Assembly: GCA_965205505.1 (NCBI GenBank)
Contig: CBDBHB010000007.1
Coordinates: 544,001-608,000 of the forward strand
Direction of reading: 5' to 3'
Source: Acidobacteriota bacterium
GTDB taxonomy: Bacteria > Acidobacteriota > UBA890 > WLXD01
DNA length: 64,000 nt
Shown: in pieces, positions 27,964 to 48,538 of the stretch
How the letters are laid out: the number at the start of each line of letters is the position of its first letter
Numbering within the stretch: position 1 is the stretch's first letter
Position numbers and translations under genes: made by a program
The notes under the pieces: model-generated
Databases searched by the model: none
What the model was told of the DNA's origin: nothing
Seen by the model: the letters and a program-made list of their open reading frames with translations, nothing else

Positions 27964-28108
27964 TTCTTGCTAAACTGCGGGCACAGTTTGGGCACAATCG
28001 GCCTCACAAGATCCACCGTGCGGCTCGTAAGTGCCCATGAATAAGGGGGCTCGTAGCTCAGCTGGATAGAGGAGCGGACTGCTAGTCCAAACGGGCGCAG
28101 TTGGTTTC
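27964..28108 (+). repeat. att-like junction A: conserved left arm plus degenerate tRNA-Arg 5' half (28047-28085)
   Basis: TTCTTGCTAAACT, GGGCACA-gttt-GGGCACA, CGTAAGTGCCCATGAATAA, then GGGCTCGTAGCTCAGCTGGATAGAGGAGCGGACTGCTAG. Confidence 0.88.
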
Positions 28109-28214
28109 AGAGGCTGGGCAACGCTATCTGGGAAATCCCGGATACTGTGCCGTCAGGGGACGCAGCGTGGCCGCGGAGCATGCACCAACACCAGGACGAG
28201 AACCGAATTAACTG

Positions 28215-28985
28215 ATGGTCGACGCGGTGCTCACTGACGTCGAGGACGGGATCCGGACGATTAGTTTGAACCGGCCGGACTGCCTCAACGCGATGAACCG
28301 TTCCCTGATCGAGGGTGTTCGCGCCAGCTTCGCGCACGCCAACCGCGATCCGGAGACGAAGGTCATCATCTTCACCGGAGCCGGCAAGGCCTTCTGCGCC
28401 GGCGACGACCTGGACGAGAACCCGCCCCGTGGCGACGAGCCGGCCGTGCGCCCCATGGTGGAAGAGCTGCAGCAGTGCACCCGCGAGATCGTCTTCGGGC
28501 CAAAGATTGTCGTCGGCGCCATCAACGGCTGGGCCGCGGGCGGAGGCTTGGAGTGGGCCATCAACTGCGACCTGACCCTGTGGGCCGAGAGCGCCCGGCC
28601 GTTCTTTCCTGAGATCAAGCTGGGAGTATCGGTGACCGGAGGGGTCACTGCCCTGTTGCCACGGATTGTCGGGTTGGTGAAGGCGCGCGAGATGATGCTG
28701 TTCGGTGCCAAGCTCGGTGCAGCCGAGCTCGCCGGGATGGGGCTGGCCTGGCGGGTCGTGCCCGACGCAGAGCTCATGGACGAGGCCCGCACGGTTGCCG
28801 CCGAGATCGCCGCCCTGCCACAGCGACCCGTGACTGAGATGAAGCGGATGCTCGCGCGGGTCACGATGGCCGAGCTCGAGACAGCGTTGCAGGTGGAGAC
28901 CGAGACGGCGATCCGCGGCGCCCTGAGCCCGGAGGTTGCCGACGGGCTACGGGCTTGGCAGGAGCGGAAACGTGGCGCCTCGTGA
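28215..28985 (+). CDS. Enoyl-CoA hydratase/isomerase family protein
   Basis: 'LNRP..LNA', 'AFCAGDDL', 'AINGWAAGGGLE', 'PE..LG'. Confidence 0.92.
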   Translation: MVDAVLTDVEDGIRTISLNRPDCLNAMNRSLIEGVRASFAHANRDPETKVIIFTGAGKAFCAGDDLDENPPRGDEPAVRPMVEELQQCTREIVFGPKIVVGAINGWAAGGGLEWAINCDLTLWAESARPFFPEIKLGVSVTGGVTALLPRIVGLVKAREMMLFGAKLGAAELAGMGLAWRVVPDAELMDEARTVAAEIAALPQRPVTEMKRMLARVTMAELETALQVETETAIRGALSPEVADGLRAWQERKRGAS

Positions 28986-28989
28986 GGAG

Positions 28990-29048
28990 TCAACGGATGC
29001 TGAGGAACTCGTAGGCCGCCGTGATTTCCTTGAACCTCTTTTCCGTCG
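28990..29048 (-). pseudogene. Tiny J-domain (DnaJ-like) C-terminal fragment
   Basis: Reads 'TEKRFKEITAAYEFLSIR*'. Confidence 0.45.
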
Positions 29049-29164
29049 GCTTGACGAGTTCGGATTAAACGCGAATGTACCATTACCGATTCCGTAGGTT
29101 GCGGGTGCCGCTGCCTACCCCGGCGGCAAGAATGCAGCCCGATCAAAGAGGAGGAGGGGAGACG

Positions 29165-30904
29165 ATGCCGTTAGACAGGCTCCGCGGGAGGCTGCTCCGG
29201 ATTGCTTGGGCCGCAACCGCTGTCCTGGCCGCTGTCTCTGCCGTCGGCTGTAGCACCGGACGCTCGGCAGTGCAGGCCGACCTGCTGCTCTCCCACGGGA
29301 TAATCTACACGGTCGATGCGGAACGTTCCCGGGCCGAGGCCGTCGCCATCGCCGACGGCGCAATCGTCTACGTGGGCGACGCGGACGGCGCGGTGGCGCA
29401 TCAAGGTCGAGACACGCGGGTGATCGACCTCGGAGGGCGCCTGGTGCTCCCGGCGTTCCAGGATTGCCATATCCATCCCATCTCTGGCGGGATTGAGGCA
29501 CTCACGGTCAACCTGAACGGGTTGGGCACCGTTGAAGCGTACGCGCAGGCAATCGCGGCCTACGCGGAAGCTCATCCGGACGAGCCGTGGATTACCGGCG
29601 GCGGCTGGTCCGTATCCGTCTTCGGTCCAGGGGCGGTGGCTGGCAAGGAGATCATCGACGCCGTGGTGCCGGACCGTCCTGTGTACCTGTCATCTTCCGA
29701 CGGTCACACGGGCTGGGCCAACACCAAGGCGCTGGAGGCGGCGGGTATCACCGCCGACACTCCGGACCCGGTCAGTGGTCGCATCGATCGCGATCCAACC
29801 ACGGGCGAGGCGATCGGTAGCCTGCAAGAAGCCGCGATGGCTCTGGTCAGGGCCCACGTTCCGCCGACAGACCTCGACAGTCGCCTGGCGGGCCTGCGAT
29901 TCGCCGTCGACATGCTCAACGGATACGGCATCACATCAATCCAGGTTGCCTCAGCCCGGCGACCGAATCTGGAGGCATATCGAGAGCTCGATGAGCGCGG
30001 TGAGCTCACATTGCGCGTGGTCGCGTCCCTGCGGTGGGACCGCCAGCGGGGCGAAGAGCAGATCGAGGACATGCTGGAGTTGCGCGAGGAGTTCACGCGC
30101 GGGCGCGTCCGAGCGACGACCGTCAAGATCATGCAGGACGGCGTCATTGAGAACTTCACCGCCGCCTTGCTGGAACCGTACCTCCAGCAGGACGGCAACG
30201 GCAATCGCGGTTTTCCCATGGTGGACCCCGAGGCGCTCAAGAGCGCTGTCACCAACCTGGATCGAGAGGGGTTCCAAGTTCACTTCCATGCCATCGGTGA
30301 CGCCGCTACACGTCAATCGCTCGACGCGGTCGAGGCCGCACAGATGCAAAACGGGGATCTCGGGCATCGCCACCACATCTCGCACCTGGAACTGATTCAC
30401 CCCGACGACGTGCCTCGGTTTCAGCAGCTTCAGGTGATTGCCAACTTCCAGCCCCTATGGGCGGCTTCCAGCCCGCATATCACCGAGTTGACCATCCCGT
30501 ACCTGGGTCCCGAGCGAAGCCAGTGGCTTTATCCACTCGGCAGCGTGCTGGATACCGGAGCGATGCTGGCATTCGGAAGCGATTGGTCGGTGTCGACGGC
30601 CAACCCCTTCCCACAGATCGAAACGGCGCTAACGCGCCAGGGCGGCCAGGCCGAGGAACCGTTCCTGCCGGAGCAGCGCATCGACCTGGCTAGCGCCGTC
30701 GAGGCATTCACCATCAACGCCGCGTTCGTCAACGGCATCGAGGAGCAGACCGGATCGATTGAGGTCGGCAAGCTTGCCGACTTGATCGTCGTCGATCGCG
30801 ACGTCTTCGCGATCGATCCGCGTGACATCTCGGATACCCAGGTACTCCTCACCCTCATGGAAGGTGTGCCGGTTCACGGCGACCTCGAGGACCTGGAGCA
30901 GTGA
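29165..30904 (+). CDS. Amidohydrolase 3 family (YtcJ-like) lipoprotein
   Basis: 'AVGC' lipobox; 'FQDCHIH', 'KIMQDG', 'HAIGD', 'GSDW', 'GSIEVGKLAD'; paralog of 21879-23624. Confidence 0.9.
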   Translation: MPLDRLRGRLLRIAWAATAVLAAVSAVGCSTGRSAVQADLLLSHGIIYTVDAERSRAEAVAIADGAIVYVGDADGAVAHQGRDTRVIDLGGRLVLPAFQDCHIHPISGGIEALTVNLNGLGTVEAYAQAIAAYAEAHPDEPWITGGGWSVSVFGPGAVAGKEIIDAVVPDRPVYLSSSDGHTGWANTKALEAAGITADTPDPVSGRIDRDPTTGEAIGSLQEAAMALVRAHVPPTDLDSRLAGLRFAVDMLNGYGITSIQVASARRPNLEAYRELDERGELTLRVVASLRWDRQRGEEQIEDMLELREEFTRGRVRATTVKIMQDGVIENFTAALLEPYLQQDGNGNRGFPMVDPEALKSAVTNLDREGFQVHFHAIGDAATRQSLDAVEAAQMQNGDLGHRHHISHLELIHPDDVPRFQQLQVIANFQPLWAASSPHITELTIPYLGPERSQWLYPLGSVLDTGAMLAFGSDWSVSTANPFPQIETALTRQGGQAEEPFLPEQRIDLASAVEAFTINAAFVNGIEEQTGSIEVGKLADLIVVDRDVFAIDPRDISDTQVLLTLMEGVPVHGDLEDLEQ

Positions 30905-31054
30905 GAAGCGCTACGCGGCGGGCAGCAGCGGTCGACAGAATCGCGAATCCATGTTAGATAGCGCGCCTTTGCCGTTGGCCAGAGCTTATCGCGTGACCGA
31001 ACACCGGTTATCTGGGAAATTCCCGGGTCAAGACGCCAACCTGATAGGTGAGAA

Positions 31055-32539
31055 ATGAAGACCAGACCGGTGCGAGCGTTCATCTTCATGTGCCTGGCCT
31101 TGCTCACGGCTGTGATGGCGGTGTGGACGTCTCCGGCAGCCGCGCAGTGGGCACAAGCGCCGCCGCGCGAGGTCGTGATCACCGGCGGCTGGCTGTTCGA
31201 CGGCGTTGGCGACGCGCGCGTCCGCAACACTGGGATCGTCATCCGTGACGGCAAGTTCGTCGAGGTCGGCGCCGACCTCAGCGGCCGCTATTTTCCGGCC
31301 GCCCGGATGATCGAGCTCGATGACGGCGCCACGATCTTGCCCGGGATGATCGATTTGCACGGCCACCTCAACATGAACATGGTGGGCGTCGGGCGGGCCG
31401 AGGAGGTCACATACAACTCGATCATCTTCCTGGCCAACGGTGTCACCGCCACCTGGTCGGCGGGAGAGTTCTTTCCCGAGCGCGTCATCGAGGCGCGCGA
31501 CCGTATCGACCGCGGTGAGGCTATCGGTACCCGCCTCTTCGCTTCGGGGCCGTACTTCGGTGCCTTCCGGTGCGAATACCAGATCAAGACGGCGGAGGAC
31601 GACTGCATCGCGTGGCCAAACGACATTACCGAACAAGAGATTCGCGCCGAAGTGGACTACTGGGCGCAGCGCGGCGTACGCAGCATCAAGATCAAGCAGG
31701 CGACGCCCGAGGAGATGCGCATTCTCATCGACCAGGCGCATCGCCGGGGCATGACCACGACCAGTCACCTTGGTAACTACGCGGGGTCCTACGACGTCGA
31801 GCCCGATGAAGCCATCGCCATGGGACTGGACCGGATCGAGCACAGGATCACGAGCGGGAGGGGTGACGATCCGGCTGAGCTGGAGCGCATGATCAACCTC
31901 TTTCTCGAGGAGGGCGTGTATCTCGACTCCAACCTGCAGATGTACTCCCGCTATGACGGGGACCCCACCGGCCACCCGTCGCTCGACCTGGTGTGGGCGG
32001 ACGAATACGAGTTCTTCACGCCGTACGCGCAGCAGCGGATTCGTGCCCGAAAGGCGGCGTCCGGGGCCGAGCCGGGGAGCGAGCACGTCGTGTCGAGGAG
32101 TTCCCGCCGGCACATCGCCGAGCTCGGCGCCCTGTTCGAGTCGGGTGGCGGCGACCTCATCATCGTCGGCACCGACGAGCCGACCTCCGGTCCGTGGCTG
32201 CCAGGCTTCGCCTACCACCGTGAGCTCATGATCATGGTCTCTGCCGGGTTGCCCCCGGCGGCGGTGCTCAAGGCCGCAACCATCAACGGAGCGCGGGCGC
32301 TCGGGGTAGTCGACCGGCTCGGGTCGATCGAACCCGGCAAGCTCGCCGATCTGTACGTCGCTGAGGGCAACCCACTGGAGGATATCTCCACCGCGCGCAA
32401 CGTGCGCCTGGTGGTGAAGGCGGGGGTGGTCTACGACCCGGCGGAGCTGCTTGAGATGGCCAAGGGCAAGATCGGCCCCTCCGGACCGGATGACCACACT
32501 GCCTGGGAGCTCGTGGTCAAGCCGTTGCGACGCCGCTAG
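31055..32539 (+). CDS. Amidohydrolase family protein, exported
   Basis: Signal peptide; 'LPGMIDLHGH', 'GTD', 'AATINGA..LG...LGSIEPGKLADL'. Confidence 0.88.
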   Translation: MKTRPVRAFIFMCLALLTAVMAVWTSPAAAQWAQAPPREVVITGGWLFDGVGDARVRNTGIVIRDGKFVEVGADLSGRYFPAARMIELDDGATILPGMIDLHGHLNMNMVGVGRAEEVTYNSIIFLANGVTATWSAGEFFPERVIEARDRIDRGEAIGTRLFASGPYFGAFRCEYQIKTAEDDCIAWPNDITEQEIRAEVDYWAQRGVRSIKIKQATPEEMRILIDQAHRRGMTTTSHLGNYAGSYDVEPDEAIAMGLDRIEHRITSGRGDDPAELERMINLFLEEGVYLDSNLQMYSRYDGDPTGHPSLDLVWADEYEFFTPYAQQRIRARKAASGAEPGSEHVVSRSSRRHIAELGALFESGGGDLIIVGTDEPTSGPWLPGFAYHRELMIMVSAGLPPAAVLKAATINGARALGVVDRLGSIEPGKLADLYVAEGNPLEDISTARNVRLVVKAGVVYDPAELLEMAKGKIGPSGPDDHTAWELVVKPLRRR

Positions 32540-32569
32540 CTGGTCGTCGTTCGCATAGCCTTCCTCACC

Positions 32570-33961
32570 ATGAAACTCCGAACCTGGCGAAGTCCCCGCG
32601 GAGCACGGCGCATGATTCCTGTCTGTGCTCTCCTCCTTCTCATGATCGCGGGTAGTGCTGCAGTCCCCAGCACGACCCACAATCAAGCTGGCGTCACCCC
32701 CCTCACGGAAGGAAGCGATTGGCCGCGCTTCCTCGGACCGACCGACGACGGCAAGTCCCCGGAAACCGGGATTCTCACGGACTGGGGTGAGTCAGGTCCG
32801 CCGCTGGTTTGGGAGCACGTCGCTGGGGAGGGCTACGCCGGCGCGGTGGTGGCCGAGGGGCGGCTGTTCTTTTTCGATCACCACGATGGCCAGGCTCGGC
32901 TGGTTTGCCTGGATCCCGAGACCGGTGCCGAGGTGTGGAGGAGCGAGCACCCCTCCGTATACCAGGACTTCTACGGCTACAGTCGCGGCCCACGCACCGC
33001 GCCGGTGGTGGACGGCGAGCGAGTATTCACCTTTGGCGTCGAGGGCACGCTCCGCGCCCACCACGTGACCGACGGCCGCGTGCTCTGGGAGGTCGCTACC
33101 GCCGAGCGTTTCGGCGTCGTGCAGAACTTCTTCGGTGCGGGCAGCTCGCCGGTCGTCGAGGGCGATCTTCTGATCGCGATGGTGGGCGGTAGCCCGCCAG
33201 GCAGCGGCGGGATCCACTCGGGCCAGGTTGCGGGCAACGGCACGGGGATCGTTGCGTTCGACAAGGCGACCGGTGAAGTCCGCTATGCGCTCAGCGATGA
33301 GCTCGCCGGCTACGCCAGCCCCGTGATCACGACGATTGCCGACAGGCGCTGGGGCTTCGTGTTCGCCCGCGGAGGCCTCGTCGGCTTCGACCCGACCAAC
33401 GGGGCCATCGACTTCCACTTCCCGTGGCGGGCGCGCCCGCTGCAGAGCGTCAATGCCTCCAACCCGGTGGTCGTCGACGACACGGTGTTCATCACCGAAT
33501 CCTACGGCCGCGGCAGTGCGCTGCTGCGGGTCAAGCCCGGTGGCTACGAAGTCATCCGGCAGGACGGGCGGCGGAACCAGAGCCTGGCGACCCACTTCGG
33601 CAATGTCGTATCCCAGGATGGGATCCTGTACGGATCGCACGGCCGCCACTCCGGCGCGGCGGAGTTGCGCGCCGTCGACCACGCCACCGGCGAGATCAGG
33701 TGGAGCGAGCCCGACCTTCTATGGACGACTCTGCTCCACGTGGACGGACATCTCATAGTCCTGAGCGAGGACGGCCGCTTGCACCTGGTAGAGGTCACAC
33801 CGGAGGCCTACCGTGCCAAAGCGTCCGTCAAGCCGGCCCGGGCCGACGGGACCGCACTCCTGAGAATGCCCTCCTGGAGCCCGCCGGTACTGTCGCGCGG
33901 CCTCCTCTACCTGAGGGGAAGGGACAGGCTGATCGCGTTGGAGTTGATCCCCGGACGTTAG
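32570..33961 (+). CDS. PQQ-like (BamB-type) beta-propeller repeat protein
   Basis: 'DWPRFLGP..DG.S.E', 'GPR..P.VDG', repeated 'D..TG...W', 'P.L..G.LYLR'. Confidence 0.8.
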   Translation: MKLRTWRSPRGARRMIPVCALLLLMIAGSAAVPSTTHNQAGVTPLTEGSDWPRFLGPTDDGKSPETGILTDWGESGPPLVWEHVAGEGYAGAVVAEGRLFFFDHHDGQARLVCLDPETGAEVWRSEHPSVYQDFYGYSRGPRTAPVVDGERVFTFGVEGTLRAHHVTDGRVLWEVATAERFGVVQNFFGAGSSPVVEGDLLIAMVGGSPPGSGGIHSGQVAGNGTGIVAFDKATGEVRYALSDELAGYASPVITTIADRRWGFVFARGGLVGFDPTNGAIDFHFPWRARPLQSVNASNPVVVDDTVFITESYGRGSALLRVKPGGYEVIRQDGRRNQSLATHFGNVVSQDGILYGSHGRHSGAAELRAVDHATGEIRWSEPDLLWTTLLHVDGHLIVLSEDGRLHLVEVTPEAYRAKASVKPARADGTALLRMPSWSPPVLSRGLLYLRGRDRLIALELIPGR

Positions 33962-34044
33962 TCGTAGGCCATTCGATTCGTCCGCCGCTACGCTACGGTC
34001 GCACGCGGGTGCGGCGATGGAGATCCGTCTCGCGCAGTGATGCC

Positions 34045-34431
34045 TCAGGGTCCGGGCGGCTCGTAGAGCTCGAGTCCGGGCAAGTCGCTGAAGTCGGCGC
34101 GGTTCAAGGTCCACAGCGCTGCAGCCTGCACGAGAGCACATGCGGCAATGGCGAGATCGATCTCTCGGCCGCGAGGACGCGCTACCTCCGCGTAGAGCTC
34201 GGCCGCGAGCCCGGCCTCGCGTTCACCGAAGGCCGCTGCCTGTCGTCGCGGGAACAGCGCCTCTTGCGCCTCGAGCTCGGGGATCGTCCGTGGCCCCCGC
34301 AGCCACTCGAAAAGCACGAGCGAGGGGATCATGATCCGCTCGCCGGCCGCGATCGACCGTCGCAAAGCGCCAGCCGAGCGTCGCGGCCCGGTGAGCGCGT
34401 CGACGAGGACGGAGGTGTCCAGCGCGATCAA
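34045..34431 (-). CDS. vapC: PIN-domain toxin
   Basis: 'IALDTSVLVD', 'DLAIAACA', 'LWTLN..DF'. Confidence 0.9.
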   Translation of the reverse strand: MIALDTSVLVDALTGPRRSAGALRRSIAAGERIMIPSLVLFEWLRGPRTIPELEAQEALFPRRQAAAFGEREAGLAAELYAEVARPRGREIDLAIAACALVQAAALWTLNRADFSDLPGLELYEPPGP

Positions 34432-34724
34432 TGCTTGCTTCCACCACCGGAGCGCCGCCCGCCGACGCGACGCGATTCACGGATCGCGACGAGCTCGTCA
34501 TCCACCTCGCGGACCGGTCGCTCGGGGATCTTGCCGACCAGCTCGTCGAAGGTCTTCAGCATGCGCAATCGCTCGCCCTCGCTCAGCCGCCCGATGCGCT
34601 CGGCATAGTCGTTGATCGCCTCGCGAACCACCTGGCTCTTCGGCTTTCCCAGTCGCTCAGCCGCTTCTTCGAGGCGAGCAACCGTCGCCGCGTCAATGGT
34701 GTAGGTGACCTTACGTGTGCCCAT
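34428..34724 (-). CDS. vapB: Ribbon-helix-helix antitoxin
   Basis: 'KVTYTID....LE..A...G.PKS.VVREAI'; 4-bp overlap with the PIN gene. Confidence 0.85.
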   Translation of the reverse strand: MGTRKVTYTIDAATVARLEEAAERLGKPKSQVVREAINDYAERIGRLSEGERLRMLKTFDELVGKIPERPVREVDDELVAIRESRRVGGRRSGGGSKH

Positions 34725-34841
34725 ACTGATGCCATATTACCATAGTCCAGCACAACCAGACCGCCAGCATCCGTCAGAAAGGGGCCGAGCTGCGCCGCGG
34801 GGCGCAGTCCACAGCCTGCAATTAGCAGTTCTGCATACGGG

Positions 34842-34973
34842 TGATGCCGGCCGCCGGCCGGCGATTGCGTAGAGGATCCCTGGAGAAGACAGCGCACCTG
34901 TGATTGCATCCAGGCATCTTCACCTCACCGACGCGACTAGCTGAGTCGGCGGTGTCTATCTGGGACATTCCCG
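34842..34973 (+). repeat. ~130-bp degenerate upstream module (second copy 44356-44485)
   Basis: Shared AGGATCCCTGGA, TGTGATTG.ATC and TCGG.GGTG.CTATCT blocks in the same order. Confidence 0.6.
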
Positions 34974-34998
34974 CTGACGCATTGCGGAGGAACTGAAC

Positions 34999-36573: not shown

Positions 36574-36848
36574 CAGGCCGTGGTGAAAGTGTGGTGGGTC
36601 TGGCGACAGGGTCTTGCGAGGCGCAGGCAAGGAGAGAGGAGGAGGCGATGGTTACCCCATCGTTGACGACGAACGACGTAGCATACGCGCGCAACCCCCT
36701 GTCGCCCGAATGGTTACGGCGACTTGGGGCCATCTGCGGCGTTGGCCTTCCTCGACGATCGCGGGAGCATCGCCAGCGTCAGGCCGCCTTGCATCTCGCC
36801 CCAACTCGTCGTAACCAGACCCACCACACTTTCACCACGGCCTGCTAG
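36570..36848. mobile_element. MITE family A, complete copy (inverted relative to 10507-10785)
   Basis: 34-bp inverted ends with CTAG; sits on the sulfatase stop codon. Confidence 0.9.
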
Positions 36849-38963: not shown

Positions 38964-39072
38964 CGGTGTTGTTCCTTTCCTGGAAACCTGACGGGACTAC
39001 GATCGTCGTCTGGAAGAATCACGTGTCGGGTTAGTTTCGCGCCAGCCGCCCGGCGTCTCTGGCGAGCTGGGT

Positions 39073-39141
39073 CCCATGGCGCTACCACAGAGGAGTGGAT
39101 GGGCGCCTGAAGTCTATCGCCGCGACGGCCGGGGATCCACG
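39073..39141 (-). repeat. ~65-bp intergenic motif, copy 3
   Basis: Aligns with 16363-16428. Confidence 0.6.
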
Positions 39142-39190
39142 CTGGCGGAACGACCAGCTAGGTCAGCTCCTGCGCCGGAGCTACCCCGAC

Positions 39191-39453
39191 TTCTTGCTAA
39201 ACTGCGGACACAGTTTGGGCACAATCGGCACGGCAAAATCCACCGTGCGGCTCGTAAGTACCCATGAATAAAGGGAGCGCCCGTAGCTCAGCTGGATAGA
39301 GCAGCGGACTTCTAAGTCACTTCACTCGACCGGGCGCGTCTTGTTTCTATTTGTATCCAGTTGCATCCATTCGACTTGTGCCCGATGGAAAGTGACTGCG
39401 AGTTGTTTCTATTTGTATCTGGTTGGACATAGATTGGCAGGAATTTGGCAAGG
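39191..39453 (+). repeat. att-like junction B: left arm, tRNA-Arg 5' half (39277-39315), right arm
   Basis: 38/39 identity to tRNA 55173-55211; right arm has TTGTTTCTATTTGTATC twice (39341, 39403), TTGTGCCCG and TTGGCA repeated at 11-bp period. Confidence 0.92.
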
Positions 39454-39499
39454 TCGGAGCTGATGGCGTGGCGCGTCGACCGAGACTTGGCCCAGGACG

Positions 39500-39578
39500 C
39501 TACGGCTCCGTCGGCACGAGCCGCTTCAGCTCGTCGAACCAGTTGAGGATCACAACCTTATCGGGGGTCTTCTGGTCG
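39500..39578 (-). pseudogene. C-terminal tail of an acidobacterial-type Ser/Thr kinase/beta-propeller protein
   Basis: Reads 'VVILNWFDELKRLVPTEP*'. Confidence 0.55.
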
Positions 39579-39941
39579 GTCCGCCGGCTTCAACAACCTG
39601 TTGACTGCACCGATTCAACGAGTTACGAAGTGGCCCCAACAGCTGGGTCAGGTCAATACGGTTGGCCGATCGGAAGGAGGCTCATCATGACGCTGGGCAC
39701 TTCAGTACGCGGCCCGCTGCTGCCGCTTCTGGTGGTCTCGTTGGCCTTCTTCAGCTCTAACAGCACGACCACCCTACAGGGGAAACGACCAGCTGATCGT
39801 CTGGTGGATTCTGGGAGAGGACAGATAGGACACGTGGCCTCGGGCGCCGGAGCCTTCATTGGTCGTGGAGCATGACCCCATGCTCACGCGAGCGCGGTGG
39901 CGGGAGGCTGGTCGCGGTCGCCGGCCCGCCCAAGACGTCCA

Positions 39942-41222
39942 TCACTTGGCGACGCCGTACTCGATCGGATTGTACCCAGGGTCCGGGAACAGACCCCTGT
40001 AGTCGGTGTTTCCGAGCCGCTTTCCGATGATCTCGGTGATGATGTCCCGATAGTCGATCGTTACCTGCAGATCCTGCTCCTCGAACATATTCTTGCGCTC
40101 GAGGCCGGGCCATTCGGTGAGCACACGACCTCCCTTGATCGCGCTCCCCATCGCCATCATGAGGCCGCCGGCACCGTGGTCGGTTCCGGCGCTGCCGTTC
40201 TCGTGCGTATTGCGTCTGAACTCCGACATCACCATCGTGGTGACTGGTTGCCCCTTGCCCGCCGCCAGGTCTTCGTGGAACGCGGCAAGCCCCTCGGACA
40301 GCTGAGTCATCAAGTCGGCCATCCATCCCTCGAAGGGACCCTGCTTTTCATGCGTGTCCCAGCCGTCCAGATCGATCGAAATCGCCTCGACTCCGATCTC
40401 GGCCTTGATCAAGGCCGCCGTCGACTTCAGCGACTCGCCGAAAAAGTCGCTCGGATAGGCGGCGCCAGAGGCCGGCTGGTAGCTCTCGAAGTCGATCGTA
40501 TCGAGCAGCTCGATGGTCCGCACGGTGTTCTTGGCCTGGGTCCGTAGCGCGTCGCCGGCCGCCTCGTACATCGGCAGGTAGTAGTCATTGAGCGGATCAT
40601 CCCAGCCGAAGCCGTAACTGGCGAGGTCCCAGATGGGAAGGACCTTCGAGCCTCCCAGCAGCGTAACCGGGACGCCGCCGCCGATACCGACCGCTCGCAA
40701 AACGGCGTTGGCGGTCGTCGGCCCCGTTTGGGCCAGATGACGGCCCAGCCAGCCGCTGAACTCGCTGGCCCGCGGATCCTCCCGGCCGACCTCCATGAAT
40801 TTCATCGCGTCGAAGTGGGAGCGGTTGCCGTGCTTCATGCCGCAGGCGTGAACGATCAGCAGGTCCTTGCTCTCGAACACGTCGGTCAGCGGCCGCATCG
40901 CCGGCGGGAAACCGAACTGGTTATCGAGAGCCGTTGCCTTGTTCTTCTTGCCGCTGTCGGGCGGCGGAACGCTAAGCGTTGGCCGTAGCTTGTAGTAGTT
41001 GTCCTCCAGGAACGGAACGCAGATCGTCAGCGCGTCGACGCCGCCGCGAAGGAAGATCGACACCAGGACATCGCGCCCGCCTACGTAGCTGTCCGCCAGC
41101 GCGACGCGCGGTAGCCACTGAGGGATCACCGCGCTCGCCGCCACCCCGGTGGCGAGGCCGACGAACCGGCGGCGAGAAAGCTCGGAGTACTCGCTACATC
41201 CCTTGCACTCGTGTTGACTCAT
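39942..41222 (-). CDS. DUF1501 domain protein, Tat signal
   Basis: 'SRRRF'; 'IFLRGG.D.L', 'RSHFDA', 'GWLGR', 'GWDTH', 'SEF.R', 'GTDHG'. Confidence 0.88.
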   Translation of the reverse strand: MSQHECKGCSEYSELSRRRFVGLATGVAASAVIPQWLPRVALADSYVGGRDVLVSIFLRGGVDALTICVPFLEDNYYKLRPTLSVPPPDSGKKNKATALDNQFGFPPAMRPLTDVFESKDLLIVHACGMKHGNRSHFDAMKFMEVGREDPRASEFSGWLGRHLAQTGPTTANAVLRAVGIGGGVPVTLLGGSKVLPIWDLASYGFGWDDPLNDYYLPMYEAAGDALRTQAKNTVRTIELLDTIDFESYQPASGAAYPSDFFGESLKSTAALIKAEIGVEAISIDLDGWDTHEKQGPFEGWMADLMTQLSEGLAAFHEDLAAGKGQPVTTMVMSEFRRNTHENGSAGTDHGAGGLMMAMGSAIKGGRVLTEWPGLERKNMFEEQDLQVTIDYRDIITEIIGKRLGNTDYRGLFPDPGYNPIEYGVAK

Positions 41223-41304
41223 CGGCTCCTCCACGGGCGTCTCGCGCCGCCGAACGCACGACGGCCCGCCGTTGACTCCACGACGCGCTCCTCTATAGCC
41301 GAGC

Positions 41305-42711
41305 TCAGTACCACTGGAACTCCGGTGAGCTGATAACCAGGTTCATAACCTGCCTGACCCGCCAGTCGCCCGTGTGCGGGTTTGCCGACATGTAGTCCAG
41401 GATCACGTTCCTGGTCTCGGGTGACATGCCGCCGGCCAGGAACTGCTGGTCGATCTGGTCGACCAGCTCCGCGTCCGACGCGGGCGGATTCGCGAGAAAC
41501 GGAAGGTCTGGGTCGATGCCGTTGTTCCAGTCGCCGATCACTCCCTGCGCGAAGTTCCACCGATTCAGGAGCGACCCCGACCAGTATTCGAAAGTGTCCG
41601 GATAGCCGTCGGGTGTGTCCCAGTCAAAGAGCCCGTGGCGAAGCTCCCCCGGCACCCACATCAGCCATTTACCCGGATCGACGTCCGCCTCCATGGCCCG
41701 GACCGTCGAGACGATCAGGTGGTACGGACGCTTGAGCTTCGGCGTCGCCTTTCGCATCAGATTCTTCGACAGAACGACCCGGAGCATGGCGCGGATGTCG
41801 CCGCCGGTCTGAAGGTAGGCCCGCTTCACCTTTCTGACCATCGAACGGCCGGGCTCGTAACCCCAGAAGTAACGCAACAGCTTGCGGGCGATGAACTCCG
41901 CCGTGTTGGGGTGCTCGGCGAGCCTCGTAAGAACTGCCTCGCCGTCGCTGATCCCTCCGCCGGCCGGGATTCTTCTGCCGAGCACCACCTTGGCGTCGTA
42001 GTCGTGGGCGCCCGCCTCGAACACGAAGTCCCCCCGGCGGTTCTTCGGGTTTCCGTACAAGTCGAAGAGCGTCCATCCCGTCAGGCACCCGGCGACCTCC
42101 ACGATGTCGTTTTGCGTGTAGCCGTTGTCGACACCGAGGGTGTGGAGCTCGAGAATCTCGCGGGCGTAGTTCTCCTGCGGGAACTCCTTGGTGTTGGAGT
42201 AGTTGTCGAGGTAGAAGAGCATCGCTGGGCTGTAGGCGCTGGCGCGCAGCAGCTCCGGGAACGTGCCCATGGCATGGCGCCGGATGACGTCGCGGTCGTC
42301 GCTCGGCTTCATCAGCAGGGTGTCGTCGCCGATGTCGATATTGAAATGGTCCGACCAGAAGATGACCATGCGCTCGAAGAGCTACCGGGGGCTGGAGATC
42401 GAACGCAGCATCGTGGCGATCACGAGATGGTCGTGCGCTTTGCTGTAAGGGTCCCTCCTGTATCGCTGCAGCAGCTCCGCCGTCGTCAACGATGTGGCGG
42501 GATAGTCTCTGGCCACCCGGCGCTCGAGCACGCTGTCGTCGAGCGACTCGAAGTCGAGCTGCTCCTCCAGGTACGCGTCGTAGCCAATGGCGTTGACCCG
42601 AGCCAGCTCGCCGGGCGTTGCGCCCATCGTGATGCGCTGCACGAGGCGCTGGTTCACTGGAATGGCTGCTGCGGCAGCGATCCGACGACGCTGCATGCCC
42701 ACCTCCGCCAT
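41305..42711 (-). pseudogene. DUF1800 domain protein with in-frame TAG at 42382-42384
   Basis: 'SPR*LFERMVIFWSDHF' (expected R-Q-L), 'PAMLFYLDN', 'ENYAREILELHTLGV', 'SPEFQ'; start approximate. Confidence 0.85.
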
Positions 42712-42865
42712 ACCGAGCCCTAGCCGGCGCGCTCGGTAGATAACCGCACCACCGATGCGACCGCCGCCATGGCGTCGGTTCGTGTGCGTCAGACCGGGCA
42801 CTCCAACGTCTGCATAAAGCTAGCACAAGGAGAAACGCATTCCCTAGCCTGAACTTCCGCCCCCG

Positions 42866-43280
42866 TCATCGTCGCTTCGCCCCCTCCAGGACCCACCGAT
42901 CGAACAGGGCGAGAACACCGTCGCTCAGTGGCGGGGCGCCCTGGGGCATACGGGCTCCGGTGATCCCTTCCCCTTTGAGCTTGCGGATCAGATAGCTGTT
43001 GGCCGGGTCCCTTGGCTCGATGCGGTTGAGCTGCACCATCTGAGTGCTGCGGACTCGAACGATGTTCGCGTAGGCCGAGCCGGCGCTGAGGTTGAGAAGG
43101 GCCTCAGGCGCCACACTGCTATGGCATCCGGCCCGATCGCAGGAGGTACTGAAGACGGGTTTGATGTGGTTCTCGAAGCTGATCACCTCGGGGTTCACCA
43201 GCCTCAACGCGCGCCCCCCGGTCGCGATGCTGGCCGTCGGGGGCGACGATGCGCAGGGATACCGACCGTGGCTCACCCTC
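42866..43280 (-). pseudogene. 3' fragment of a cytochrome c-like (CxxxxCH) domain gene
   Basis: 'SF..HI.PVF..SC..AGCH', 'P.DP.NSYL..KL', 'RMP.G.PPL', 'WV.EGA'; no proper start. Confidence 0.55.
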
Positions 43281-43913
43281 GTCCTGGATGCTGTGCGCGA
43301 ATGGCGGCAGCAGACTGCACTCCAGTAGCAACGCGCGTATCTCCGGATGATGCGCAACGAGCCCACTCGCGACAGACACGACCTCTGACTCCATGCGAGC
43401 GACATTCAGGTCGTGCTGATCGCGGAAGACAACCTCTTCGAAGTGAGGACATCCCTCTAGCCCCGCTACAACGACGCTATCGGGATCAACTCCAGCACTT
43501 TGAAGGTGCCTCGACGTGAGATGTCGCGCGTCAGCCGTCATGATGCCGACCCGGTGACCGGACTTCAGCATACGGGCGATAAGAGGCACGAGTAGGAGGC
43601 TCGAAGCGAAGACTGGAACATCAACCGCCTCGGCCAGCTGGTCCTGGAACACAGCCGTGAATCCACAGCTGGTGGTAATCGCGCGGACTCCAGCTTCCTC
43701 GAGGCTCCGCGCTCCATCGATCCAGGGACCGATGACGTCGTTTGTCTCGCGGACGACACGCTCGCCGGTCGCACCAGGCACAACGTAGTGCAAGACCGGG
43801 AATGGGAAGGTTGTTGCGTTTCCGAGCGCTCCCGGCAAACGAGGAAAATGGCCCTCGATGACGAGAATACCAATCGTATGACCGTACAGGCTCGTCGTAC
43901 CGTGTACCTTCAT
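43281..43913 (-). pseudogene. Aspartate/glutamate racemase family protein, C-terminally truncated
   Basis: 'IGIL...FPR.PG..GNA.TFPFPV', 'AITTSCGF', 'LLECS.LPPFA..IQ' then unrelated sequence. Confidence 0.75.
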
Positions 43914-44506
43914 CTGGTACCTCGTCCGTCGCGAGAATCTTGGCCTGCGGCGAGCCACGCGACGTTGTTGTTCCTCGACGCCGAGGCATTCTCCTACGCC
44001 ATTTGTCTCCCGGCCAACGCCATGTTAGCCCGCAACAGGCCAACATCTCCGGTCGCTCCTGACTTTCACTCAGTGGAACCAGGCGCGGAGAGCCGGTTCC
44101 GCGCCTGTGAGCTGACGACGGTAAGTCGGCGAGTCTCTAGGAATGCTCGTGGCAATAACAGCGTAAGGATCGCGGCGACTCGAATCAGCGAAGGTATTGG
44201 TGCGCCTTGCATACGCCGCAGCCTAACTTCAGGCGCCCGGATCGGACAACTCCGCGACTTGAGTCGGCAAGCGATCAACACGCTCCTCCGCGCAAGTTGG
44301 CTCCATCAAGCGCCGGGAAACCGACATGGAATGCACCCATGCCGACTACCTCGCCTGATACCTACCGCCGACCGCTGATTCGAGATAAGGATCCCTGGAA
44401 AATACAATGCGCGTGTGATTGGATCACACCGTCTCCGCCTCGCTGAGGGAAGTATCGACTCGGAGGTGGCTATCTCGTCACATGGGCAGTCCGCAGAGGC
44501 GAGCCT

Positions 44507-45247
44507 ATGCACCCCGAACGGCTGGGCGACTTCAAGGTCCTGACATTCGACTGTTACGGGACGCTCATTGACTGGGAGACGGGAATCCTCAATGAGCTGA
44601 AGCCGTGGGCTGCTCGACACGGTCTGACTCTGGACGACGACACGCTGTTGGAGGCCTTCGCCGAGGAGGAGGCGGCGTGCGAGAGGACCACGCCAGAGAA
44701 GCTCTATCCTCAGATCCTCGCGGCGGTGCTCGGGCGGCTCGCGAAACGGTGGTCCGTAGCGCTCGACGAGGGGGAGGCCCCGGAGTTCGGAGGGTCCGTG
44801 GGCGCGTGGCCGGCGTTCGCCGACAGTCCGAAGGCTCTCGTGTACCTCCAGAAGCACTACAGCCTGGTCATCCTCTCCAACGTCGACCGCCGTTCCTTTG
44901 CGCTGAGCGAGTCGCGGCTGGGGATCAATTTCAAGCGAGTGATCACTGCAGAGCACGTCGGTTCCTACAAACCTGACGTGCGGAACTTCGAGTACATGCT
45001 GAAGGATCTGGAGCGGACGCTGGGGGCTGGACCTGAGGTGATCCTGCATACGGCACAGAGCCTCTTCCACGACATCGTCCCCGCGAAGGCCATGGGATTG
45101 ACGACGATGTGGATCAATCGCCGTAAGGCATCCGACAGATGGGGTGCCACACCGCCGCCGCCGGTCGAAGGTACGGGCGCAGCGCCGGATCTCGAGGTAG
45201 CGGGCATGGCGGAGTTCGTCTCGCTTCACCAGGCAGTCGTCGGGTGA
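44507..45247 (+). CDS. HAD-superfamily hydrolase (haloacid dehalogenase type II-like)
   Basis: 'LTFDCYGTLIDWE', 'LSNVD', 'GSYKPD', 'HTAQSLFHD'. Confidence 0.9.
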   Translation: MHPERLGDFKVLTFDCYGTLIDWETGILNELKPWAARHGLTLDDDTLLEAFAEEEAACERTTPEKLYPQILAAVLGRLAKRWSVALDEGEAPEFGGSVGAWPAFADSPKALVYLQKHYSLVILSNVDRRSFALSESRLGINFKRVITAEHVGSYKPDVRNFEYMLKDLERTLGAGPEVILHTAQSLFHDIVPAKAMGLTTMWINRRKASDRWGATPPPPVEGTGAAPDLEVAGMAEFVSLHQAVVG

Positions 45248-45353
45248 TCGTGGGGCCCGCGCCGGCCTTCGGACCGGCCCCTGGGCACAGGGACCATTGG
45301 CGGCCCGGTGAAAGCTCCCGGTTTCTGCCACACCCGTGCACTAGGAAACACAG

Positions 45354-47330
45354 ATGAACGACAGCGATCGCGCGTTGGGAATGCACCGACCCATCAAGCG
45401 TCGAGACTTCGTCGCCGGGGTCAGCGCGGTGATCGGTGGAACCATGGCCATCCCGGGAATCACCCGGCCCGCGGCTCCGATGTCGCTTCAAGTCAGATCA
45501 GTCAACGCCCAGAGCTACCCGCCTCTCCGTACAGGGATGCGCGGTGCCCACCCGGGGTCCTTCGAGGCGGCGCACAGGACACGCGACGGGGCCAACTGGG
45601 AAGGATCGGAACCCGTTGACGAAAGTTACGACGCCATCGTCGTCGGAGGTGGTCTCAGCGGTCTGGCTGCGGCGTACTTCTATCGTCAGATGGCAGGCCC
45701 GGAAGCTCGGATCCTGATCCTCGACAATCACGATGACTTCGGTGGCCACGCCAGGCGAAACGAGTTCGAGACGGATGCCGGGACGCTGATCTCGAACGGG
45801 GGGTCGTCCTACATGGTTCGGCCCGTGACCTACTCGGCGCCTGTCATGGCCATGCTCCGCGATATTGGTGTCGAGCTCGACGAGCCAACGAACGTAGCGG
45901 ATTCAAGCGCGTTCCGCAGCCGGGGGATGGTGCGAGGGACGTTCTTCGACCGCGAGACCTTTGGAGAGGACCGGCTGGTCACAGGAGGCAGACTTTCGCA
46001 GCCGACGCGGGAGTTCCTCGACCGGACGCCCTTGTCGGAGCACGTCCGGACGGACATTCGTCGACTTCATGCCGGGGCGGACTACCTCGCCGGCATGTCG
46101 GTGGTGGAGAAGGAAGCCTATCTGCAGCGGATCAGCTATCGAGATTATCTGCTTGACGTCGCGAAGGTCCATCCCGACGTGCTTCCCCTGGTCGGGAGCG
46201 TCTGGGCGCTTTCGCAGGACACGGCGAGCGCCTGGTTCGCCTTCTATCGCGGTGGCATGGGCTTCGAGGGCCTCGACCTGACGCGCCCGCCCTTCTCTCC
46301 GGAGCGGTCCGAGGAGGGGCACGAATCAGTGAGCTTCCCCGCCGGCAACTCCGACATCGCGCGGCTCATCGTTCGCTCTCTGATTCCGGCCGCCCTTCCG
46401 GCGGGGCGAATGGCGGACGTCATCCTGGATCGCGTTGACTATACGAAGCTCGACGACCCGCGCTCACCGGTGCGGATCCGGCTGAACAGCACCGCTGTTC
46501 AGGTCAAGCATCTGGGCGAGACCCCCGTCGGCCGCCTGCGCACGGACGATCGGGAGACCGAGGTTACCTACGTTCGGGAGGACAGGCTGTATCGGGTTGG
46601 CTCGAAGGGGGCGATTCTCGCCTGCGACAACTCGGTGATCCCGTACATCTGTCCGGAGTTACCCGAGGATCAGCGGGAAGCACTCCTCCTCGCGGACCGG
46701 GCGGTAAACATGATGACAACGGTCTTGGTTCGGACCTGGACGTCGTTCGAACGGCTAGGCATCAGCGGAGTGGACAGCCCGGGGATGTTTTACAACACCT
46801 TCAATCTCCGTACGCCGAGACACTTCGGCACATACCGGCCGGAACTCGACCCTGTGGACCCCGCCCTGGTCGGATTGCAGAGCCCGTCCGGCGTTCTGCA
46901 CCACCGAACCATGGTTCGGGAGCTGTTCGACGGCAATCCACCCGCACCCGGCACTCCGCTCCGGGAGCAACTTGCGGCGCTTCGGACCCGCGTGTTGAGA
47001 ACCCCGTTCGAGGACTTCGAGCGTCGGATCCGGGCGCAGCTTGCGCGAGTCCTTTCGCCCGGTGGCTTTGATCCCGCACGCGACATCGAGAGCATCACGA
47101 TCAACCGCTGGCCGCACGGGTTCGCGATGGGAACCAACGCTCTGTTCGATCCCGCCGAGTGGACGGGCGAGAACCACCCCACGGTCGCGGGTCACAAGCC
47201 CTTCGGGAGGATCACCATCGCGAACTCTGATGCAGCTGGCCTAAGCCTCGCGCAGGCGGCAATGGGCGAGGGTTATCGTGCTGCGACCGAATTGGTACCT
47301 CGGAACTACGGGTACTTCAGCGAAATCTGA
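45354..47330 (+). CDS. Spermidine dehydrogenase-like FAD oxidoreductase, Tat signal
   Basis: 'LGMHRPIKRRDF', 'YPP.RTGMRG.HPGSFE.AH', 'LDNHDDFGGHARRNEF', 'INRWPHG'; paralog of 37047-38963. Confidence 0.82.
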   Translation: MNDSDRALGMHRPIKRRDFVAGVSAVIGGTMAIPGITRPAAPMSLQVRSVNAQSYPPLRTGMRGAHPGSFEAAHRTRDGANWEGSEPVDESYDAIVVGGGLSGLAAAYFYRQMAGPEARILILDNHDDFGGHARRNEFETDAGTLISNGGSSYMVRPVTYSAPVMAMLRDIGVELDEPTNVADSSAFRSRGMVRGTFFDRETFGEDRLVTGGRLSQPTREFLDRTPLSEHVRTDIRRLHAGADYLAGMSVVEKEAYLQRISYRDYLLDVAKVHPDVLPLVGSVWALSQDTASAWFAFYRGGMGFEGLDLTRPPFSPERSEEGHESVSFPAGNSDIARLIVRSLIPAALPAGRMADVILDRVDYTKLDDPRSPVRIRLNSTAVQVKHLGETPVGRLRTDDRETEVTYVREDRLYRVGSKGAILACDNSVIPYICPELPEDQREALLLADRAVNMMTTVLVRTWTSFERLGISGVDSPGMFYNTFNLRTPRHFGTYRPELDPVDPALVGLQSPSGVLHHRTMVRELFDGNPPAPGTPLREQLAALRTRVLRTPFEDFERRIRAQLARVLSPGGFDPARDIESITINRWPHGFAMGTNALFDPAEWTGENHPTVAGHKPFGRITIANSDAAGLSLAQAAMGEGYRAATELVPRNYGYFSEI

Positions 47331-47511
47331 CTGATTGGCTCCGCATGTACCCTTGTCCGGTCATCGATCACGCCACCGCTTTAGGGTTCCTCCGATATCG
47401 GACAGACCGCGGATTCGTGCTTACGTGGGCTCGTTGCGACTGGCCGAAGCGAATCGCGAGTGATCACCTCGTGCGGATGGAGCCCGCTACCTACCCCAGA
47501 CGTGGGCGGAC

Positions 47512-47773
47512 TTCTTGCTAAACTCCGGGCACAATCCGGGCACAGTCCGAAACCGCCCGTTCGTAAGTGCCCATGAATAAAGGGAGCGCCCGTAGCTCAG
47601 CTGGATAGAGCAGCGGACTTCTAAGTTTCCGCCCCGTTTTTGGACAGAGCTGTATCGGGCTGGATTCCTTTGGAATCAACGGCGGTTACGCAGATTCCTT
47701 TCCAGCTAGATATATCTAGGGATATACAGAATCCGGCGCTGTTTGGAAGAGAATCTGCAAGGATTGTGCAAGC
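47512..47773 (+). repeat. att-like junction C: left arm, tRNA-Arg 5' half (47586-47624), right arm
   Basis: Half identical to junction B half; GGGCACA-atcc-GGGCACA on the left; TGCAAG at 11-bp period at the right end. Confidence 0.92.
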
Positions 47774-47879
47774 AGGCCGAGACCACGATCGGAGTTCGGG
47801 TTCGCGAATCTCGGGATCCGGATCCAGAGCGCTCGGCCGGTCGGGCCAGTCGGTCCGTGATATAGAACTCGAGCAGAAG

Positions 47880-48536: not shown

Positions 48537-48538
48537 CT

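Follow-up and report, generated by a model that had tools for sequence, protein, structure and literature searches.

The stretch of DNA analysed here, referred to as the window, comprises 64,000 nucleotides of an Acidobacteriota genome (assembly GCA_965205505.1, contig CBDBHB010000007.1, positions 544,001 to 608,000) and contains a tandem array of three units that ends at a tRNA gene. The single tRNA identified in the window by ARAGORN is tRNA-Arg(TCT), which is present in one copy among the 55 tRNAs called by this program in the 5.98-Mb, 96% complete assembly. A repeat finder detected four in-register copies of the 5′ part of this tRNA, at positions 28022, 39252, 47561, and 55148, spaced by 11230, 8309, and 7587 bp. 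The three displaced 5′ halves mark junctions A, B, and C, and the units following them are named E1, E2, and E3 (Table 1). Each displaced half spans the tRNA from its first base to the sequence CTTCTAA in the anticodon loop, after which the sequences diverge. The identity stops after CTTCTAA in halves B and C and also in twelve fragments from related genomes, which corresponds to the anticodon-loop sublocation of the crossover.

All three displaced fragments are on the plus strand upstream of the intact tRNA, the arrangement by which the Islander software recognizes an array, and no displaced 3′ half of the tRNA was found in the window. The fragments are 5′ halves, and the intact gene lies to their right, so each element carries the 5′ half together with the upstream region of the tRNA. 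Supply of the 5′ part by the incoming element is the rarer of the two polarities. Zhao and Williams reportedly described an element of reversed orientation in 2002. A passage of a review of archaeal elements calls recombination with the 5′-distal part of tRNA genes “considerably less frequent” and cites Zhao and Williams for it (PMC6563490). The 5′ half of the intact tRNA differs from halves B and C in one base of the D-loop (A instead of C), as expected if E3 delivered the present half. To the right of the tRNA, the likeness among the window's own genome (G000) and two of the four other genomes of the genus (G001–G004), namely G003 and G004, extends over only about 30 nt. The right side of the tRNA is thus variable too, and the comparison with G004 is clean on the left only. 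The sequence directly 3′ of the tRNA (55249–55275), CTTTGTTATCAACAACTTACG, is the inverted form of the CGTAAGTTGTTGATAA box, and elements of the usual polarity may be present on the 3′ side of the tRNA as well.

Each displaced half is preceded by an arm of about 90–105 bp with a helically phased pair of GGGCACA words. The sequence TTCTTGCTAAACT is present without mismatch at 27964, 39191, and 47512 of the plus strand, with a chance expectation of 0.22, and a fourth site with two mismatches is located at 55133, at the stop codon of the integrase gene (int). The arm consists of TTCTTGCTAAACT, the GGGCACA pair at an 11-bp period, and then CGTAAGT.CCCATGAATAA. The words of the pairs start at 27979 and 27990 in arm A, at 39206 (GGACACA) and 39217 in arm B, and at 47527 and 47538 in arm C. 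According to the repeat finder, the 85-nt arms A and B are 91% alike. A search for GGGCACA-N3-5-GGGCACA with up to one mismatch identified three sites in the whole 5.98-Mb genome, all of which are these arms. The exact GGGCACA pair occurs 15 times in 26 genomes of the order, compared with once for the pattern read backwards. An earlier note on this DNA, made from the sequence alone, had described arms with the GGGCACA pair and CGTAAGT at A, B, and C, and the exact copies of TTCTTGCTAAACT and the likeness of A to B bear this out. The TTGGCA, TGCAAG, and GGGACA pairs and the inverted TTGTGCCCG were likewise read directly where the note had placed them. The span that it had given, 28086–47624, runs from the first base of E1 to the last base of half C, and the arms are located just to the left of the tRNA fragments.

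Table 1 Features of the tRNA-Arg(TCT) array in the window
Feature	Position	Strand	Remark
Arm A	27955–28046	+	TTCTTGCTAAACT, GGGCACA-N4-GGGCACAATC, CGTAAGTGCCCATGAATAA
Displaced tRNA-Arg 5′ half A	28047–28085	+	Decayed, 5 of 39 positions changed
E1, integrase-less, composite	28086–39315	+	From 34769 on equivalent to the terminal cassette of G004
Start of α-type P′ arm at A	28086–28109	+	24 nt left (TCCAAACGGGCGCAGTTGGTTTCA), remainder lost
Arm B	39182–39276	+	First word mutated to GGACACA
Displaced 5′ half B	39277–39315	+	39 of 39 positions as in the consensus half
E2, integrase-less	39316–47624	+	Left arm of TTGGCA kind, right arm of GGGCACA kind
β-type P′ arm after B	39316–39455	+	Inverted TTGTGCCCG at 39376–39384; TTGGCA at 39434–39439 and 39445–39450
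Weak likeness to integrase C-terminal box (LSGHRSRHRF...)	47347–47460	+	Just upstream of arm C, non-significant
Arm C	47503–47585	+	GGGCACAATCCGGGCACAG; spacer before CGTAAGT shorter
Displaced 5′ half C	47586–47624	+	39 of 39 positions as in the consensus half
E3, terminal element	47625–55211	+	Would supply the present 5′ half and the tRNA upstream region
γ left arm of E3	47625–47772	+	TGCAAG pair at 47756–47761 and 47767–47772
Tyrosine integrase (Int)	54051–55142	+	Full length compared with relatives; 79% identical to L062 over residues 2–362
GGGACA-gaaac-GGGACA pair in int 3′ end	55080–55096	+	Words at 55080 and 55091; read G T E T G Q
Intact tRNA-Arg(TCT)	55173–55248	+	Called by ARAGORN; crossover after 55211

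The nature of the arms becomes apparent from relatives of the tyrosine integrase Int encoded in E3, the stop codon of which is located 30 nt before the tRNA. We compared 26 loci encoding relatives of Int. A tRNA gene (SeC, Lys, Leu, Arg, Pro, or Ser) is located within 200 nt after int in 17 of the loci, with its 5′ end adjacent in eight and its 3′ end in nine. Between int and tRNA, all 17 loci contain a pair of identical words at an 11-bp period followed by a (C)GTAAGT box, often in the form GTAAGTnnTTGATT. The word differs among the clades of Int: it is GGGACA in the closest relatives (65–80% identical), GGGAAAG or GGGAAGG in others, GGGCACA in L079 and L083, and other words occur further out. 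The word covaries with the Int clade, and the words may be bound by the N-terminal domain of the integrase. The common layout agrees with the proposal of the earlier note that the arms are attachment arms with phased arm-type words. Attachment sites (attP) of the lambda type combine arm-type sites with bends made by integration host factor (IHF), and the IHF consensus, when reversed, is similar to the GTAAGTnnTTGATT box that separates the arm words from the core. The phased direct repeats on both arms, 100–140 nt from the core, are also as in lambda attP, whereas in the arrays described here the arm words lie inside the coding tail of int and the P′ arm contains ten extra phased TTGG words. 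A paralogue of Int, 78% identical, is encoded elsewhere in the window's genome (contig C7, 19594–20640) and is followed by a GGGACA pair and a GTAAGT box. It is located near tRNA-Arg(CCG) (C7, 14036–14110), after which there is another GGGACA pair at 14309. The region C7:14036–20750 is probably a second element of the Int family. The best integrases of named phages are 29% identical and provide no useful namesake, and a search of viral contigs for the arm beside a tRNA-Arg 5′ end gave no match.

Metagenomes were scanned for GGGCACA-N4-GGGCACA followed by GTAAGT, which resulted in at least 121 stretches, and 80 sites were analysed. Among the matches listed, 23 of the 80 had too little upstream sequence, and 57 could be assessed. 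An integrase of the family ends at the word pair in 22 of the 57; the other 35, with 1200 nt or more available upstream, lack int, and an intact tRNA adjoins 13 of them. At the int-bearing sites, near the stop codon, the pair encodes GH(N)LGT and GTAAGT encodes VS. The arms of the window, translated in the frame of int, read ...FLLNC GHSLGT IGLTRSTVRLVSAHE*. The arm is therefore best read as a putative remnant of an int gene, namely its last approximately 25 codons, plus the P arm of the corresponding attP. Arm A is read as the presumed P arm and int-tail relic of a lost element of the GGGCACA type.

The arm is not restricted to tRNA-Arg(TCT). It abuts the reverse complement of the 3′ half of tRNA-Arg(CCT) in G002 and in three genomes of a sister family (G012, G013, and G024), and no integrase was found near these tRNA-Arg(CCT)-side arms. 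Since the arm lies there inverted, beside the 3′ half, it cannot be the promoter of that tRNA, and this placement shows it to be a probable lambda-type attachment arm and not merely a tRNA promoter. An arm-like sequence also directly precedes the intact tRNA-Arg(TCT) in G004, G011, and G012. The arm must thus be capable of driving this tRNA as well, which is compatible with its role in attachment. A scan for sigma-70-like promoters, which is uninformative for this phylum, found none in arm B or in the spacer between E3 and the tRNA.

The P′ arms on the other side of the core belong to several families. The α arm is about 150 nt long and contains ACCAAACGG, six TTGG words at a 10–11-bp period, AATCAGCC, and four more TTGG words. 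It ends with CCCCGC followed by a second GGGCACA pair. Seven copies are 77–93% alike, and the copy in G020, which belongs to another family, is 87% alike. The α arm is present in 11 of the 26 genomes of the order and in none of 375 other genomes sampled from the phylum. The window's own genome contains no intact α array, and junction A retains only its start. Among the matches listed for the 80 metagenomic arm sites, none has a TTGG array, and the two second GGGCACA pairs found there are uninformative. The β arm after junction B ends in a TTGGCA pair that matches the upstream arm of kind y, which is composed of a TTGGCA pair and CCGTAAGT and is present in G001–G004 and G020. Arm-type repeats are thus found on both sides of the core, GGGCACA on the arm and the end of α, and TTGGCA on y and β. 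This suggests at least two cognate sets of arms. The left and right kinds recur in several combinations across the genomes. Serial insertion pushes the old 5′ half to the left; therefore, junctions A, B, and C would be hybrid sites, each composed of the P arm and tRNA half of one element and the P′ arm of the next.

Pfam searches were run on 44 open reading frames (ORFs), 21 of which are inside E1 and E2. The genes of E1 encode an enoyl-CoA hydratase, two amidohydrolases, a propeller protein resembling those that bind pyrroloquinoline quinone (PQQ), a sulfatase, and a flavin adenine dinucleotide (FAD)-dependent oxidoreductase. Those of E2 encode DUF1501 and DUF1800 proteins, an Asp/Glu racemase-like protein, a HAD hydrolase, and an FAD oxidoreductase. 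No recombinase family is among the Pfam matches of the 21 ORFs. A six-frame search of the window with PF00589 (E ≤ 1) gave a single match, at 54570–55031 in E3, and none in E1 or E2. The best tBLASTn match of 13 integrases of the family inside 27600–47700 had an E-value of 0.32. These searches confirm the statement of the earlier note that modules A–B and B–C contain no recombinase gene or recognizable remnant. The 38-residue segment upstream of arm C that weakly resembles the integrase C-terminal box is on the strand expected for int but was rejected as a remnant of it. Its BLAST E-value was 0.67 over the window (0.002 in a 400-bp search space), and its E-value against a profile of 31 integrase C-termini was 0.49, compared with 0.6 for the best match of the reverse-strand control. 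No remnant of int above noise is present within 700 nt upstream of any arm.

The units do not all correspond to single insertions. G004 lacks the equivalent of 27770–32549 and has a junction inside the equivalent of 34766/34769. On this comparison, module A–B, which the earlier note had treated as one unit, is a fusion of at least two former units. The left β arm of E2 and its GGGCACA-type right arm make E2 a hybrid. The word pair in the left arm of E3 is TGCAAG instead of GGGACA, so that E3, too, may have arisen by fusion.

The same kind of locus is present in all four other genomes of the genus. The array of G003 contains seven displaced halves and the intact tRNA at its right end within 27 kb. 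The cassettes are 6.4, 3.8, 3.3, 2.8, 5.1, 3.2, and 2.5 kb long and have one to four genes each. The first encodes a PQQ dehydrogenase, a CoA ligase, an enoyl-CoA hydratase, and a broken amidohydrolase; the second an ion channel and a PQQ/cytochrome c protein; the third a Ser/Thr kinase with PD40 repeats; the fourth an amidohydrolase; the fifth a PQQ dehydrogenase and an ankyrin-PQQ protein; and the sixth and seventh one Calx-beta protein each. Genes of the Ser/Thr kinase-PD40 type flank arms in two families (third cassette of G003; G012, G013, and G024). The cargo of neighbouring cassettes is mostly unrelated, and cassette genes, one to six per unit, are on both strands. A copy of the fourth G003 cassette (e4) in G002 is 92.5% alike. 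The two have different neighbours on the left, and they become alike exactly where the tRNA half begins, at its first base. PF00589 has no match within about 270 kb of the G003 array, and no homologue of Int was found anywhere in G003 at E ≤ 1e-5. No integrase adjoins any of the 15 exact GGGCACA pairs that the 26 genomes of the order contain. The objection foreseen in the earlier note, that relatives might always carry int beside this arm, is thus not borne out, as the 15 pairs and the seven cassettes of G003 show.

The locus of G004 provides a view of the array in another state. From left to right, it contains a truncated int (residues 184–363), a junction, 37 kb of sequence, a second junction, 5.4 kb, and an arm followed by the intact tRNA. 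Its terminal unit corresponds to 34769–39315 of the window with 94–97% identity. Thus, at the place where this arm leads into the intact tRNA in G004, the window has junction B and then E2 and E3. This difference, like the changed left neighbour of the e4 copy in G002, speaks for recombination at the core after the genomes had diverged.

A history of the array can be put forward on the basis of its anatomy, its polarity, the lack of int, and its counterparts in related genomes. The tandem array would have been built by site-specific recombination, with the crossover in the anticodon loop of the one tRNA-Arg(TCT) gene; each arrival would bring a 5′ half and upstream region and shift the old 5′ half leftwards. 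The shared left arm would be the P arm of an element family whose integrase recognized GGGCACA, left over from the last approximately 25 codons of int with the GTAAGT box, next to the core. E3 would be the youngest element, still with its integrase, which presumably uses GGGACA. E1 and E2 probably belong, as single members or as fusions, to a family without an integrase. A single loss of int appears to underlie this family, which may have persisted as units bounded by attachment sites, with changing cargo. Such units could move only with an outside integrase, provided either in cis, if accretion joins them to a neighbour that has int (E3, for example), or in trans. The difference between G004 and the window, where E2 and E3 follow arm B, is compatible with co-movement with an accreted int-bearing element. 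We give an even chance to this reading, in which serial site-specific integration built the array and E1 and E2 are integrase-less units similar to cis-mobilizable elements (CIMEs) that would be moved, if at all, in cis or in trans.

Several observations weigh against mobility of the integrase-less units. Arm B matches its G004 orthologue at 78 of 95 positions, with the words themselves hit, whereas the DNA immediately upstream matches at 206 of 221 positions and the neighbouring gene at 1771 of 1893. Arm B is thus less conserved than its surroundings and is decaying, contrary to the description of the arms as well preserved in the earlier note. Junction A is decayed, too, and no intact α arm is left in the window's genome. 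The fused E1 and the non-matching arms of E2 are as would result from passive scrambling, and the reading frame of int through the arm is broken in three of nine arms of the genus. The truncated int next to a junction in G004 is an intermediate of plain decay. Int itself is 42–47% identical to the GGGCACA-type integrases that we found, and its own word is GGGACA, which makes it a poor candidate for the enzyme cognate to the GGGCACA arms. No integrase with GGGCACA arms was detected in the 26 genomes of the order, and G003 has no Int of this family, so that its own enzymes cannot at present move its array. No circular form or excision joint was seen in Logan contigs, which break at repeats. Two candidate excision joints, 47611→55217 and 47532→55173, were rejected, since they had 21-letter sides or extra letters and originated from other tRNA genes or arm repeats.

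Many of these observations would be explained if the units were inert scars of autonomous islands, each of which lost its own integrase after arrival, with nothing having moved since. We regard this as rather unlikely. The derivation of the arm from the tail of an int gene, the half-deleted int beside the G004 junction, the decay of arm B and junction A, and the apparent lack of a cognate integrase in the order all speak for it. So does the mosaic cargo with lost junctions, including the first G003 cassette (e1), which has no arm, and the amidohydrolase gene of which runs straight into the tRNA half. However, nine arms of the genus become alike at one point, 8–10 nt before TTCTTGCTAAACT, and are preceded by five unrelated sequences. 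One truncation followed by spread is a more economical explanation of this shared left boundary than nine deletions, and it is improbable that numerous separate deletions all stopped within the same few bases. The integrase-less arm may thus have a single origin. Likewise, scars would not be expected to lack any trace of int in the 700 nt upstream of the arms and at all 15 arm sites. The reading of the units as non-autonomous cassettes, made in the earlier note, is thus partly supported: int is missing at the arms, but the arm itself appears to be a remnant of the int of an autonomous ancestor.

A more far-reaching possibility is that this order contains a family of integrase-less cassettes with a conserved bipartite attachment site of about 300 bp that would have remained competent for recombination long after the loss of int, being inserted and excised by integrases encoded elsewhere in the cell or the community. 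Its site would comprise GGGCACA words on both arms, the ten phased TTGG words, and its own tRNA half, and its integron-like arrays at tRNA-Arg genes would reach seven cassettes. It would represent a tRNA-anchored cassette system based on lambda-type and not attC chemistry. We consider such a family unlikely.

The array may also have grown in place, by amplification of one ancient integrase-less cassette through unequal homologous exchange involving the repeated arms and halves, with piecemeal replacement of the cargo and no later site-specific recombination. Six cassette left ends share the end of a minus-strand gene, ...NWFDELKRLVPTDP*, 200–280 nt past the crossover (L029, L038, L033, and window 39530–39580), and it is a mere remnant in two of them, the window and G003 e4. 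The amidohydrolase genes of G003 e1 and e4 are 90% alike, and the sixth and seventh cassettes (e6 and e7) are 69–79% alike with right arms that are 95% alike. A non-coding block of about 200 nt (…GTCAGTCCACACATCG…CTGTGAACTGACGACGG…) is common to the upstream regions of four arms (L028/L029 in G003, J3–J5, and window 27700–27955). These likenesses are all compatible with growth in place, which is nevertheless quite improbable. Among the displaced halves of the five genomes, 14 of 15 are identical to the consensus over all 39 positions, whereas the adjacent arms are 58–90% alike (mean 78%), that is, they differ by 10–42%. Neutral tandem copies should lose their likeness at the same pace in halves and arms, and a conversion tract would not be confined to a 39-nt half. 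The perfect halves beside diverged integrase-less arms indicate that the halves are under selection, as expected if each unit rebuilds a working tRNA. The several combinations of arms and the mostly unrelated cargo of neighbouring cassettes also argue against amplification. The 200-nt block has an internal GGCGCGGAG/TCCGCGCC inverted repeat, and in G004 (L030 region) it is also present away from any arm.

The earlier note had raised a possible integron-like system with a tRNA as the insertion site. In a dedicated platform of this kind, a resident integrase such as Int would capture and shuffle promoterless cassettes with the tRNA acting as attI. The arrays of up to seven cassettes of one to four genes with constant ends resemble those of integrons, as does the position of Int directly beside the insertion point in the window, and the Int word GGGACA is similar to GGGCACA and has the same AATC tail. 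None of the defining features of integrons was found. Int scored 15.6 bits with the integron-integrase model TIGR02249, the cut-off of which is 265, and is thus not an IntI-type enzyme. Its gene belongs to the terminal element, G003 lacks it, and G004 has a truncated form, and the arm word changes with the clade of Int. The cassette genes have no common orientation and do not follow the logic of a Pc promoter. The junctions, judged from their repeats with no fold computed, are lambda-type double-stranded sites of about 300 bp in which directly repeated, phased arm words flank a tRNA half on either side, not attC hairpins. A platform of this kind is just as doubtful as growth in place. Finally, it is very improbable that the arm is merely the native upstream region or promoter of tRNA-Arg(TCT), copied as a by-product, as might be thought from the arm-like sequence before the intact tRNA in three genomes, the need of a single-copy tRNA for an upstream sequence that drives it, and the D-loop type of the halves, which follows the host family, because precise recombination at the core would leave the native upstream region only at the far left of arrays that contain three to four arms, the same arm occurs inverted beside a second tRNA, at its 3′ end, the arm has the layout of the int tail in intact elements, and, as a weak point, no sigma-70-like promoter is predicted in it.

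The preferred reading, serial integration with integrase-less CIME-like units, can be compared with described systems. CIMEs are flanked by attL and attR, lack integration genes, and are thought, in the part of the source that treats them, to be moved by an int-bearing neighbour recombining the outer sites (PMC5704250). E2 has such flanks, since it is bounded by junctions B and C with full halves; the left site of E1 is decayed. The array is similar to the CIMEs and the accretion of ICESt1/ICESt3 of Streptococcus in that integrase-less units flanked by attachment sites stand in tandem with an int-bearing element at a tRNA. In contrast to CIMEs, the units described here are small, with one to four metabolic or secreted-protein genes, and up to seven occur in a row; they have one common truncation point of int, and the 5′ half is supplied by the element. 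Furthermore, conjugation genes play no part in the array, and our searches did not detect a cognate integrase. The ssrA islands of Dehalococcoides are likewise many catabolic islands stacked at one small-RNA gene, approximately half of which have an integration module. According to the portion of that study concerned with them, the module is present in 16 of 31 islands, and cargo and module have separate histories (PMC3146451). However, Dehalococcoides islands use the 3′ end of the transfer-messenger RNA gene and a multi-gene module, whereas the arrays described here use the anticodon loop of a tRNA with reversed polarity and a conserved bipartite site of about 300 bp.

Islander islands share with the array a tyrosine integrase, a crossover in the anticodon loop, displaced fragments at the ends, and tandem organization. 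In the section of the Islander paper that gives these counts, a 5′ fragment is listed for 159 of 3919 islands, and only four arrays have three or more members (PMC4383910). Islander, as described there, requires an integrase in every member, so arrays like these are missed by design; in the window, E3 alone has its own integrase. IMEX elements and pdif modules lack a recombinase and borrow XerCD. They are similar in being recombinase-less modules bounded by recombination sites for an enzyme encoded elsewhere. In contrast, inspection by eye, with no search for a dif-like 28-bp site, showed only a tRNA half and long arms at the junctions of the array. A literature search at the level of result lists, without supplements, found no description of such arrays in Acidobacteriota. 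The array differs from the described cases in the reversed polarity, the small and numerous units, the single common truncation of int, and the elaborate conserved P′ arm.

If the units move, they provide a second route, besides integrons, for assembling and reshuffling small sets of catabolic and surface-protein genes at one site, in a poorly studied and mostly uncultured phylum of soil and marine bacteria. If they do not, the locus is a clear record of the accumulation and erosion of islands at tRNA hot spots. Arrays of this type escape standard island finders, which require an integrase in each island and for the most part look for 3′ fragments. A broad integrase family also emerges from the comparison; it has its own arm sites in the coding tail and uses tRNA genes in either polarity (8 versus 9 of 17 loci). 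Elements of this family that replace the 5′ half must supply a promoter for an essential single-copy tRNA.

E3 encodes a PycTM effector, a PycC fragment, an IS3 element, a DUF3574 protein, a CapP-like M78 peptidase, an IS630 element, and the integrase. The Pycsar defence pair consists of the PycTM effector at 47880–48536 (minus strand) and the 140-residue fragment of the PycC cyclase at 48539–48961, which matches only positions approximately 108–189 of the profile. The IS3-family insertion sequence, at about 48946–50205 with its transposase at 49143–50171, begins at the end of the PycC fragment, and the cyclase thus looks cut by it. The IS630-family element (52805–53943, transposase 52806–53897) is absent, with a clean joint of 52804 to 53944, from contigs of three public sequencing runs (X15, X18, and X19), and is therefore polymorphic among close strains. 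Two genes for alpha-subunits of Rieske ring-hydroxylating oxygenases, both on the minus strand and 76–82% alike in DNA, flank the array, one (23636–25114) 3 kb to the left of A and the other (55669–57189) 420 bp to the right of the tRNA. A repeat of about 50 nt (GGACTAGCAGGCCGTGGTGGAAGTGTGGTGGGTCTGG...) occurs in direct orientation at 4575, 10504, 19772, 27748, and 36567 of the plus strand and inverted at 10752 and 36815. It forms inverted pairs about 250 bp apart (10504/10752 and 36567/36815) that resemble miniature inverted-repeat transposable elements or repetitive extragenic palindromic sequences, and one copy is located between an FG-GAP gene and arm A. In a genome of another genus (L044, G007:C2), two copies of tRNA-Arg(TCT) are 6.6 kb apart, the second with an aberrant 5′ acceptor strand (TGGCGC) and a full 3′ part, which looks like a different element of the usual polarity with its crossover near the D arm.

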